Positions 7,917 through 8,384 of a stretch of 44,371 nucleotides of DNA are shown in pieces. The position numbers were made by a program, and so were the translations under genes. Source of the DNA: a virus (Duplodnaviria > Heunggongvirae > Uroviricota > Caudoviricetes); IMG/VR virus record IMGVR_UViG_2627854098_000001, one strand, 5' to 3'. The notes below the pieces were generated by a model, which ran no database searches, was not told where the DNA came from, and was given only the letters and a program-made list of their open reading frames with translations. Position 1 is the first letter of the stretch. Every line of letters starts with the position of its first letter.

Positions 7917-8384
7917 TTTGCTGCTCCTCATCATATCGACCCTGCAAGGTCGGTTGGTTTCTCCACAAAACAGAGAAGAACACCTGCGGTGGCAGCCGCC
8001 CGGGTGGATTGGGTTATGAGCCCGTCGTCCGGTGATGCTCTTCTCTGTTTTGTAAAAAGAGCGGTACCAGCCGGAAGCAAGGGTACAAGCTGGTACCGCC
8101 AGGACTACACACAGCATAAAGTTGTGGTGCCGGGTGCCTCCCGGTGCCTGGCGAAGGTTGCACACCAGGCGGGTGGGTATCCACAGAAGGTCGACTGTCA
8201 GCCTCAACCTTAACCCGCGTGCGCTGAGCCGCATTCACCACAACGCTAAGGATTCTCTCTGGTTGAAAATACTTAGCTGTTATGTGCCTGCTTTTAGCCA
8301 CATCAGGCGAGGTGGGCCTGGTTATTCCCCAACAACAAGGATTCGGCTAATCTGGATGACTCTGTTCTTAGAGGGGATAATTAA
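7917..8384. promoter_or_regulatory. GC-rich structured non-coding island between divergent genes
   Basis: No convincing ORF; perfect inverted repeats 7965-7979/8039-8053 (15 bp) and 8061-8071/8089-8099 (11 bp), plus shorter dyads; must contain the leftward early promoter and the rightward moron promoter. Confidence 0.5.

Follow-up and report, generated by a model that had tools for sequence, protein, structure and literature searches.

Organization and coding status of the region

The window (the whole stretch of 44,371 nucleotides analyzed here) contains, at positions 7917 to 8384, an interval bounded by the start of a yfdP-like gene at 7916 and by a moron on the plus strand that begins at 8385. 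The yfdP-like gene, which matches PHROG 204, is read on the minus strand from an AUG at 7916..7914, preceded by a Shine-Dalgarno sequence (GAGGAG, 7929..7924) and a small hairpin (7954..7935); relatives keep a hairpin just before the first gene, with unrelated sequences. The interval is richer in G+C than its flanks (0.54 to 0.585 versus 0.41 to 0.48), as an earlier note made from the sequence alone had remarked. The note had also seen no credible open reading frame between the two genes, and we agree, since single-base insertions and deletions between homologues of the region break every reading frame. Shuffled controls folded much less well than the interval itself, with a larger margin on the minus strand (z = -5.8) than on the plus strand (z = -2.9). 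We conclude that the region specifies non-coding RNA in minus-strand orientation.

Most of the region is present in approximately 1,600 of 5,426 complete E. coli genomes, at a median of 1 place per genome and at most 5, and all of these matches lie in prophage contexts; the copy in E. coli ATCC 11775 is 100% identical. We therefore rejected dispersed REP/BIME-type repeats, a match that the earlier note had named as speaking against a structured RNA. The RefSeq label under most of the matches is "hypothetical protein," and in prophage e14 of E. coli K-12, the stretch homologous to the core RNA described below is labeled "protein YmfH." Nothing in the whole window reached the gathering score of an Rfam family, ARAGORN called 0 genes (no tRNA or tmRNA gene), and literature searches on the core sequence, on ymfH, and on tRNA-like decoys turned up nothing concerning this locus.

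The structured RNA that the earlier note had suspected proved to be two conserved RNAs with compensatory base changes, and their G-U pairs place both on the minus strand. The two long repeats that it stressed are present, as are its shorter stems (7935-7954 and 8146-8170). However, neither long repeat belongs to the conserved core, which spans 8244..8118 and of which only the P5 stem had been picked out.

A pseudoknotted core related to STnc100 and PasD

The Rfam model for STnc100 (RF02076) aligned at full length (model positions 1 to 206 of 206) with 8274..8052 on the minus strand, scoring 45.4 bits (E = 1.8e-8). The curated gathering score of this family is 47, and the core RNA has gone unannotated because its match falls just under that threshold; a family is thus at hand for a region that the earlier note could not assign to any. 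The early-operon relatives were all below threshold as well, at 33 to 45 bits, with related early-operon copies at 33.4 to 40.6 bits. We built a covariance model, R1, from the core and used it to align the window with 84 other matches. R1 gave 87.2 bits for the core (8118..8244, minus strand), its sole match in the window, and the invariant blocks GGUGAAU and CACCGGGAGGCACCCGGCACCA are common to more than 100 phage contigs. By its sequence, the core is a relative of the Hfq-bound prophage small RNA family STnc100, which includes PasD and EcOnc27.

Eleven STnc100 copies are annotated in strain EDL933, nearly all with RNA-seq reads, and one of them was verified by Northern blotting (PMC5331693). 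EcOnc27 was cross-linked to Hfq (PMC4104026, PMC7873438), while PasD1 and PasD2 are stable only with Hfq and abundant in RIL-seq data (PMC8550237). PasD and STnc100 have been judged to share ancestry (bioRxiv 10.64898/2026.05.13.724894), and PasD2 is the top RNA among CsrA-bound chimeras (bioRxiv 10.64898/2026.08.12.744399). Many relatives of the core have a σ70 promoter whose -10 element ends about 3 nt before helix P1, together with a terminator of their own, and some stand in tandem arrays.

In the predicted fold, the core is closed by P1 (8244-8236 with 8129-8121), followed by an invariant junction AAU (8235-8233), P2 (8232-8217), P5 (8170-8146), and P6 (8144-8130; CCGGG-AGGCA-CCCGG), which is also invariant. 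Just 5' of the core, an inverted repeat (GCUAAG-UAUUUUC...GAGAAUC-CUUAGC, 8245..8277) forms a hairpin in both the minimum free energy and centroid folds; it falls within the span matched by the STnc100 model and is kept in SfV and e14 and replaced in ST64B. Across the 85 relatives, 95.2% of the cells were paired compared to 78.0% after shuffling, with none of 500 shuffles as high. Seventeen of the 26 core pairs had changed on both sides, and the covariation was seen in P1, P2, and P5.

The core also contains a pseudoknot (8154..8211), formed between AAGGUUG (8211-8205), immediately 3' of P2, and CAACCUU (8160-8154) in the P5 loop. The columns concerned are out of register in the MAFFT alignment, and the pairing was evaluated by parsing each sequence separately with cross-sequence controls. 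Among 61 distinct relatives parsed, 28 different 5' strands pair with their own P5 loop. The complementary runs had a median of 6 within a sequence, with 57% reaching at least 6, whereas the cross-sequence controls had a median of 4 and only 8% reached at least 6. This family-wide covarying pseudoknot is unmarked in the printed Rfam consensus line for STnc100. For a small RNA that acts simply by base-pairing, such conservation, together with a pseudoknot and an invariant P6, is unusual, and it suggests that a protein or ligand is bound. In e14, the copy has lesions in the otherwise invariant P6, as expected of a decaying RNA gene.

The match to phage P1 lies in the ban operon, upstream of tciA, and not in c4. 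We rejected an immunity RNA of the C4/IsrK type, which this match had brought to mind, since the match is outside c4. The window lacks both C4 and isrK, which SfV, mEp460, and ST64B carry in the rightward region.

The linker and the intrinsic terminator

The core is joined to a terminator by a single-stranded linker (UUUAUGCUGUGUGUAGUCCUG, 8100..8120, minus strand), which we consider a candidate seed. Its segment UGCUGUGUGUAGUC is kept in 61 fetched loci, among them phiES15, which has another terminator, and L248, which has a reduced core; in ST64B, whose terminator is also different, it has a single change (UGCUGUGUGAAGUC). The linker is thus conserved even where the core or the terminator has been swapped out. 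No second site complementary to the putative seed was found in the window.

Sequence, Rfam alignment, and folds all identify 8054..8099 on the minus strand as an intrinsic terminator, with a 13-bp G+C-rich stem, a loop of 13 to 15 nt (the innermost predicted pair varies between folds), and the tract UCUUUUU at 8060-8054. The stem includes the perfect 11-bp repeat (8061-8071 / 8089-8099) and aligns with the terminator helix of the STnc100 model. The earlier note had reported no U-tract after any stem on either strand and had set the stems apart from ordinary terminators. On the minus strand, however, UCUUUUU (8060..8054) directly follows 8099..8061, and the 11-bp repeat is the classical intrinsic terminator of the small RNA; a hairpin with a U-tract is found on this strand only. 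An automated scan had missed it because its loop limit was 8 nt. In ST64B, the stem is built from another sequence (GUCGGCGUC/GACGCCGAC), and the U-tract after it is unchanged. A possible boxA at the terminator tail (CGCUCUUUUUACAA) was dropped, as it is not conserved in SfV, e14, or ST64B. We also looked for a riboswitch-type antiterminator pairing between P1 and the terminator; none was seen by inspection, and the modules are shuffled among phages.

A three-way-junction RNA with an initiator tRNA-like arm

Downstream of the terminator, a second RNA (7965..8053, minus strand) was recognized from its fold and from an alignment of 14 sequences. The perfect 15-bp repeat (7965-7979 / 8039-8053) extends to 25-nt arms that are 84% complementary and is the base of a three-way junction separate from the core, closed by a stem of about 25 bp. 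Arm 1 ends in GGG-CUCAUAA-CCC (8023..8011), and arm 2, which is variable, reads GCGG-CUGCCA-CCGC on the same strand. The predicted energy is -48.2 kcal/mol (z = -7.1). In the 14 sequences, 92.0% of cells were paired compared to 86.7% after shuffling (0 of 500 shuffles as high), and pairing fell to 36 to 51% when the partner strand was slid. Both partners had changed in nine pairs, and at one pair 12 of the 14 sequences have U-G; the retention of U-G pairs assigns this RNA to the minus strand. Its place is always after a terminator and ahead of the first operon gene, regardless of the identity of that gene. We consider this three-way-junction RNA undescribed.

The segment 8024..8011 (CGGGCUCAUAACCC) is 14 nt identical to the anticodon arm of E. 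coli tRNA-fMet, including its three G-C pairs and CUCAUAA loop. In Klebsiella phages, a tRNA-like form of the junction RNA lies directly after tRNA genes, with the same arm, a 6- to 7-bp acceptor-like stem, and an (A/G)CCA end; in the window, the 25-bp stem takes the place of the acceptor-like stem and there is no CCA end. Unlike a tRNA, the junction RNA has neither a D arm nor a T loop. It was not called by ARAGORN and no Rfam tRNA match was found in the window, and the Klebsiella phage form was likewise not called by ARAGORN or the Rfam tRNA model. A remnant of a tRNA-derived attachment site was rejected because identity to tRNA-fMet is confined to the anticodon arm.

Promoter and antitermination signals

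The earlier note had placed the leftward early promoter within the interval. However, scanning 7917 to 8384 yielded no good σ70 match; one weak site (9/12) ends at 8377 and begins outside the interval. A strong PL-like promoter (TTGACA-16-CATAAT) was found instead at 9060..9033 on the minus strand, beside the cI terminator (9088..9069, minus strand), and the core starts about 780 nt downstream of it. Between them, a hairpin is followed by a perfect boxA (CGCUCUUUAACAA; CGCTCTTTAACAA) at 8923..8911 on the minus strand, which is the only exact boxA match in the window. The module of hairpin, boxA, and AUCUGG is also present in four other contigs, with differing hairpin sequences. Although the elements at 8911..9088 lie outside the reported span, they form one transcription unit with the leader.

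The absence of an N-like protein had been pointed out in the earlier note. Consistent with it, the ORF lists of the window, L042, and SfV show no N-like Arg-rich ORF between promoter and core, and the flanking proteins searched gave no match to the N family. We found no boxB of the lambda or P22 type, and the hairpin near boxA lies upstream of it. The PL-proximal leader has no significant structure (z = 0.14). A put-like leader at PL, in the stretch common to L248, was rejected, as it folds no better than shuffles and bears no resemblance to putL.

Proposed mechanism and alternative explanations

In our best explanation, to which as a whole we give a probability of about 0.6, the span serves as the minus-strand leader for the leftward early operon in a lambdoid prophage of the SfV/e14 type and combines a small RNA released by termination with an mRNA leader containing a processing hairpin, both roles being putative. 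The homology, the folds, the covariation, the terminator, and the order of the parts are observed. Transcription would start at the PL-like promoter beside cI, with a weak promoter of the RNA itself also possible, and would first yield the pseudoknotted STnc100/PasD domain of about 130 nt, the conserved linker, and the strong terminator. Termination would then free a small RNA with a 3' hairpin and a U-tail. We infer Hfq binding and action in trans; the most likely mode is base-pairing through the linker seed because the layout matches that of the Hfq-bound EcOnc27 and PasD. Polymerases that pass the terminator would transcribe the three-way junction and then the yfdP/yfdQ/yfdR-like genes, and RNase III would probably cut in the stem of about 25 bp, separating the small RNA from the mRNA. 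Separation by RNase III is known from the lambda N leader and the dicF operon.

Several observations count against this explanation. The core and its early-operon relatives all score below the STnc100 threshold, a PL transcript would need to cross about 640 nt antisense to the moron before reaching the core, and the best σ70 match in the 110 nt upstream of the core is 6/12. A strong terminator precedes an operon without an N gene. In P1-like phages, the same core lies 25 to 40 nt before a start codon, without a terminator, a placement that looks cis-regulatory. Moreover, the tRNA-like tip has no role in the model of a small RNA with a leader.

Some of these points would fit a cis-regulatory leader, in which the domain, by recognizing a ligand or a protein, would control termination at 8099..8054 or, in P1-like phages, translation. 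The closing stem, multi-helix junction, covarying pseudoknot, and invariant junction and loop bases resemble the build of an aptamer; what comes after the core is a terminator or, in P1-like phages, a hairpin that sequesters the ribosome-binding site of a tciA-like gene located 25 to 40 nt away; and PasD2 tops the CsrA-bound chimeras (bioRxiv 10.64898/2026.08.12.744399). Nevertheless, we regard this reading as unlikely: cores, linkers, and terminators are freely shuffled with no conserved alternative pairing of P1 and terminator, tandem arrays and promoter-to-terminator units without a downstream gene are common, and a nonoverlapping spacer of 20 to 40 nt is atypical of expression platforms. 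Quite unlikely, in our view, is a processive antitermination RNA, whose core would bind its own polymerase and replace N by carrying it through 8099..8054 and later terminators. In its favor, the core is placed after the PL-like promoter and ahead of the first strong terminator in an operon with early genes, no N-like ORF was seen here or in relatives, the complex conserved fold with its invariant P6 suggests binding to a conserved host machine, and a conserved terminator implies that something must overcome it. However, where relatives have a promoter and a terminator of their own, they accumulate as separate, terminated RNAs (PMC5331693, PMC8550237), so the core does not appear to block a terminator directly behind it. 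The terminator and downstream leader are the same in mEp460, whose core is very divergent (24 bits), and in L248, whose core is gutted, and the perfect boxA upstream offers a protein-based route. The core also differs from the two-stem put RNAs, shows no likeness to putL or putR, and lies far from the transcript start. More tentatively, the STnc100/PasD core may serve as a pseudoknotted domain for binding a protein or ligand instead of as a passive scaffold, and the junction may represent an undescribed class of phage tRNA-like RNA with an invariant initiator-anticodon arm, excised as a mimic or decoy; the combination seems improbable to us. The junction RNA could be cut from the early transcript via its long stem, and the Klebsiella phage form could be cut out by tRNA-processing enzymes. 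Candidate targets of a decoy could be a tRNA-fMet-cleaving nuclease of the VapC type, methionyl-tRNA synthetase, or the ribosomal P site with IF3.

Explanations that do without an RNA fare worse. DNA-level elements such as REP/BIME-type repeats, operators, or recombination sites would account for the long near-perfect palindromes and the nearby immunity region. We consider them very improbable, given that the region is single copy per genome (median, 1 place) and confined to prophages, that G-U pairs, of which the core alignment has many, and U-G pairs are kept on the minus strand only and would be mismatches in DNA, and that no operator-like repeats are common to the region and the cI-cro region. 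That a small protein is encoded, either by the YmfH-like 95-amino-acid ORF at 8014..8301 (minus strand) or by other called ORFs, is scarcely credible. The RefSeq labels favor it, but the single-base insertions and deletions between homologues fall inside the ORF, the substitutions are compensatory in the RNA helices, the Pro/Gly/Arg-rich translations are those that G+C-rich stems would give, and the P6 lesions of e14 fit a decaying RNA gene.

The region is labeled a hypothetical protein, YmfH, or nothing because the Rfam threshold just misses this STnc100 branch. Recognizing the RNA removes a phantom gene and adds a small RNA gene to SfV, SfII, SfIV, ST64B, e14, and P1-type phages. The covarying pseudoknot and the invariant P6 offer a handle on the binding partners of abundant Hfq- and CsrA-associated prophage RNAs, and the junction RNA, with its likeness to tRNA-fMet, gives a new lead on how temperate phages may mimic tRNAs.

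Comparison with known systems

The core shares with STnc100/PasD its helices, the invariant blocks, the 3' intrinsic terminator, and a home in lambdoid prophages of enterobacteria. It differs in P2 (GCGGC.../...GCACGC in the window; CCCCC.../...GGAGGGG in the family), in having no evident promoter of its own, and in being followed by a second structured RNA. Described members are found at the late "moron" site, behind Q, PR', or stx (PMC4104026, PMC12711010). The window copy belongs instead to the leftward early operon, with the immunity region (cI, 9100-9774) on one side and the yfdP-like early-left genes on the other; it is not at the late Q/PR' site, the Q-like gene being located at 15586-16380.

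The earlier note had suggested an element like HK022 put. Both are phage RNAs located between an early promoter and the first terminators, with no recognizable N. However, put is a two-stem RNA of about 70 nt located at the very start of the transcript (PMC9378689), whereas the window core is a 127-nt multi-helix junction far from it. R1 had no match in the HK022 nun-PL-cI-PR region, blastn detected no similarity between the PL leader of the window and that region, and inspection revealed no sequence common to the core and putL, which was read from its HK022 record with the numbering checked against PMC9378689. On these sequence comparisons, membership of the core in the HK022 put family is not supported.

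DicF, like the window RNA, belongs to the early operon of a defective lambdoid prophage, beside repressor genes, and ends at a Rho-independent terminator. From the dicB operon of prophage Qin, it is also released by RNase III and RNase E from read-through transcripts. The ban operon of P1 holds both a dicF-like region and an STnc100-like core. However, DicF has 53 nt and an unstructured 5' end, compared to a 127-nt pseudoknotted domain in the window, where the DicF model scored 15.9 bits (gathering score, 48) on the terminator hairpin only and gave no real match.

A further comparison is with the leader of lambda N. In the window, as in lambda, a consensus boxA lies downstream of a PL-like promoter, and in both there are an early terminator and a long hairpin just upstream of the first operon gene. 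The window differs in that neither an N gene nor a lambda- or P22-type boxB was found, and its hairpin precedes boxA, as in rrn leaders and unlike lambda nut. The slot of N in lambda is occupied here by a moron on the opposite strand and by an RNA gene with a strong terminator, with boxA upstream, which raises the question of how N-less lambdoid phages turn on their leftward genes.

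Locus and coding status

The span 7917-8384 is bordered by a minus-strand yfdP-like gene (PHROG 204) starting at 7916, beyond which the leftward operon continues with a DUF2303/yfdQ-like and then a yfdR-like gene, and by a plus-strand moron (8385-8897; 170 amino acids; PHROG 7681, weak match to LprI). Its GC content is 0.54 to 0.585, compared to 0.41 to 0.48 in both flanks. We rejected the open reading frames (ORFs) called within it as genes, because homologues in SfV, e14, and ST64B carry single-base indels inside them. The whole span folded better than shuffled controls on both strands, the minus strand (z = -5.8) much better than the plus strand (z = -2.9). 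Both inverted repeats described in the earlier note are present; the 11-bp repeat is perfect, and the 15-bp repeat can be lengthened to arms of 25 nt with 84% complementarity. The structured RNA postulated there was borne out, but not the anatomy, the strand, or the analogy to put, the HK022 antiterminator RNA.

Elsewhere in the window, positions 5000-6000 are very AT-rich (GC 0.25 to 0.32), and neighbouring minus-strand ORFs at 5586-5927 and 5035-5574 correspond to the N- and C-terminal portions of a single family, PHROG 12528; the pair (5035-5927) resembles one gene that was split or frameshifted.

A sub-threshold STnc100 variant

The default Rfam scan of the entire window reported nothing, because the core scores below the curated threshold of STnc100 (RF02076), 47 bits. 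A permissive scan matched 8274..8052 (minus) to this model over 206/206 positions (45.4 bits, E = 1.8e-8). The core represents a variant that falls just short of the threshold of a known family, at a new genomic position. Members of the STnc100 sRNA family occur in prophages in multiple copies; EDL933 has 11 annotated, almost all of them covered by RNA-seq reads and one verified by Northern blotting (PMC5331693). EcOnc27/sRNA103, encoded downstream of stx2B, was crosslinked to Hfq (PMC4104026, PMC7873438, PMC12711010). In EPEC, the sRNAs PasD1 and PasD2 depend on Hfq and show high abundance in RIL-seq (PMC8550237), and a common ancestor with STnc100 has been proposed for them (bioRxiv 10.64898/2026.05.13.724894).

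To gather relatives, we scanned viral and genome contigs for exact motifs, and we built a covariance model, R1, from 25 diverse cores. R1 has exactly one match in the window, 8244..8118 (minus; 87.2 bits), and none in the HK022 nun-PL-cI-PR region. Among 85 aligned matches, 95.2% of cells form standard pairs, compared to 78.0% with shuffled partners (0/500 shuffles as high) and 42 to 46% with partners slid. Seventeen of the 26 pairs are changed on both sides, totalling 376 cells; the covarying helices are P1, P2, and P5. P6 (CCGGG-AGGCA-CCCGG) and the junction GGUGAAU are nearly invariant, also among sequences not selected on them.

An extra pairing, unmarked in the Rfam STnc100 consensus line, joins the segment directly 3' of P2 to the P5 loop (AAGGUUG/CAACCUU in the window). 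Its strands are diverse among relatives (AAGGCUG/CAGCCUU; AGACUGACAAA/UUUGUCAGUCU; CCAGUC/GACUGG). For 44 distinct loops, the maximal stretch of Watson-Crick pairs with the own partner had a median of 6 and was at least 6 in 57%, compared to a median of 4 and 8% in cross-sequence controls. This pseudoknot appears to be undescribed.

Phage P1 carries an STnc100-like core (record positions 70078-70204; L124 1502-1628) scoring 74.9 bits with R1 and 33.4 bits with Rfam. It is part of the ban operon, is separated by 30 nt from tciA downstream, and runs antisense to the annotated upl 5' leader; a 9-bp hairpin 3' of it is predicted to sequester the tciA Shine-Dalgarno sequence.

Terminator and linker

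Downstream of the core, the 11-bp repeat forms an intrinsic terminator hairpin (8099..8061, minus), which the Rfam STnc100 model aligns with its terminator helix. The earlier note held that no stem is followed by a U-tract on either strand; this was wrong, because UCUUUUU sits directly 3' of this minus-strand hairpin. ST64B has a terminator at the same position with another stem sequence, followed by the identical U-tract. The minus-strand linker between core and terminator, UUUAUGCUGUGUGUAGUCCUG, is kept where the terminator differs (phiES15, and ST64B with one change) and in contig L248, whose core is gutted. Such conservation despite a changed terminator or core is the pattern expected of a seed, for which the linker sequence is a candidate.

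In mEp460 (L002 3694-3831, minus), the same terminator and three-way-junction leader accompany a very divergent core (24 bits, P6 loop enlarged). In L248 (2930-3000) they accompany a minimal core of P1, the AAU junction, and the linker only; this contig also seems to hold two tandem terminator-plus-leader units. Upstream of the core, L248 (2820-2870) and the ST64B-like contig L157 (about 7055-7110) contain a motif resembling a tRNA T arm (CTGGTTCGATTCCAG); ARAGORN called no tRNA at either.

A three-way-junction RNA with a tRNA-like tip

The 15-bp repeat belongs to a second element, 8053..7965 (minus), which folds as a three-way junction (-48.2 kcal/mol, z = -7.1). A motif scan found it in 85 distinct contexts, of two types. 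Type A, the window's form, lies 3' of an intrinsic terminator and 5' of the first early-left operon gene, which is yfdP-, yfdR-, or rdgC-like. In an alignment of 14 type A sequences, 92.0% of cells pair, compared to 86.7% with shuffled partners (0/500 as high) and 36 to 51% with partners slid; nine pairs are altered on both sides. One U-G pair is kept in 12/14, which assigns the RNA to the minus strand. Arm 1 is nearly invariant; at its tip, CGGGCUCAUAACCC exactly reproduces the anticodon stem-loop of the E. coli initiator tRNA, whose sequence we checked against all 5,426 genomes. Since R1 matched a core upstream of only 5/20 type A loci, core and junction RNA are separable modules.

Type B occurs in the late region of Klebsiella phages, immediately 3' of tRNA-Asn and tRNA-Arg genes; it has an acceptor-like stem of 6 to 7 bp and an (A/G)CCA end, and neither ARAGORN nor the Rfam tRNA model called it. 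In phage GZ7 (L246 2509-2577) and in L247, L256, L269, and L275, this uncalled tRNA-like gene has the stem GGCCUG/CAGGCC, discriminator A or G, a CCA end, and a CAU "anticodon" loop, and lacks a D arm and T loop. By sequence, G2-C71, C3-G70, A73, and CAU would resemble the methionine identity set.

The annotated ymfH of the e14 prophage overlaps a copy of the RNA region (L003 3502-3813; 89.5% identical). In this copy P6, otherwise invariant, has suffered a deletion and a G-to-A substitution, and the junction-RNA loop is UUAAUAA rather than CUCAUAA. The ymfH annotation probably marks a spurious ORF on top of an RNA gene undergoing decay.

Transcription context

The best promoter match immediately upstream of the window core is 6/12. 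Farther upstream on the minus strand, a cI-like gene (9774..9100) has its terminator at 9088..9069, 3' of which lies a strong PL-like promoter match, TTGACA-16-CATAAT (9060..9033). About 110 nt downstream of the promoter, after a hairpin, comes a perfect consensus boxA, CGCUCUUUAACAA (CGCTCTTTAACAA as DNA), the sole exact match in the window. The block from cI terminator to boxA spans 8911-9088 (minus), and the module of hairpin, boxA, and AUCUGG repeats in four other contigs (L042, L173, L156, and L241) with differing hairpin sequences. The leftward transcript crosses the moron antisense before reaching the core. No N-like gene was seen in the window or relatives.

In many late-region relatives, a good promoter precedes the core, its -10 element finishing about 3 nt short of P1. 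Some are arranged in tandem with a repeat period of about 250 nt; those with their own promoter are independent sRNA genes. Three to four STnc100-like RNAs stand in tandem on one strand at L019 372-992, L027 1725-2345, L058 4379-5463, and L011 2322-3351, and two at L074 7207-7580, with start-to-start distances of about 250 to 270 nt; in L058 and L011 the distances reach about 460 nt. The rightward early regions of SfV (L001 6487-6675), mEp460 (L002 6175-6363), and ST64B (L125 409-597) carry isrK and C4 antisense RNAs above Rfam thresholds; the Rfam scan found neither in the window.

Proposed role

A put-like antitermination role of the core is unlikely: it has no homology to HK022 put and lies at the wrong position, its relatives terminate efficiently directly after it, and divergent or gutted cores also occur with this terminator and leader. 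The core may alternatively act in cis: its fold is aptamer-like, and in P1-like phages it lies right beside the ribosome-binding site of a tciA-like gene. The best-supported reading is that the span 7917-8384 holds an sRNA gene at the head of the early-left operon, a placement that appears undescribed for an STnc100-like core. The tRNA-fMet-like junction RNA likewise appears undescribed, and the role of its tip is the most novel lead of the region.

Under the sRNA-gene reading, termination at 8054-8060 would release a structured RNA with a 3' hairpin and U-tail, and the read-through transcript would carry the three-way junction and the early-left operon. RNase III could plausibly cut the 25-bp stem and so separate the sRNA from the read-through RNA, for which the lambda N leader and dicF offer precedents.
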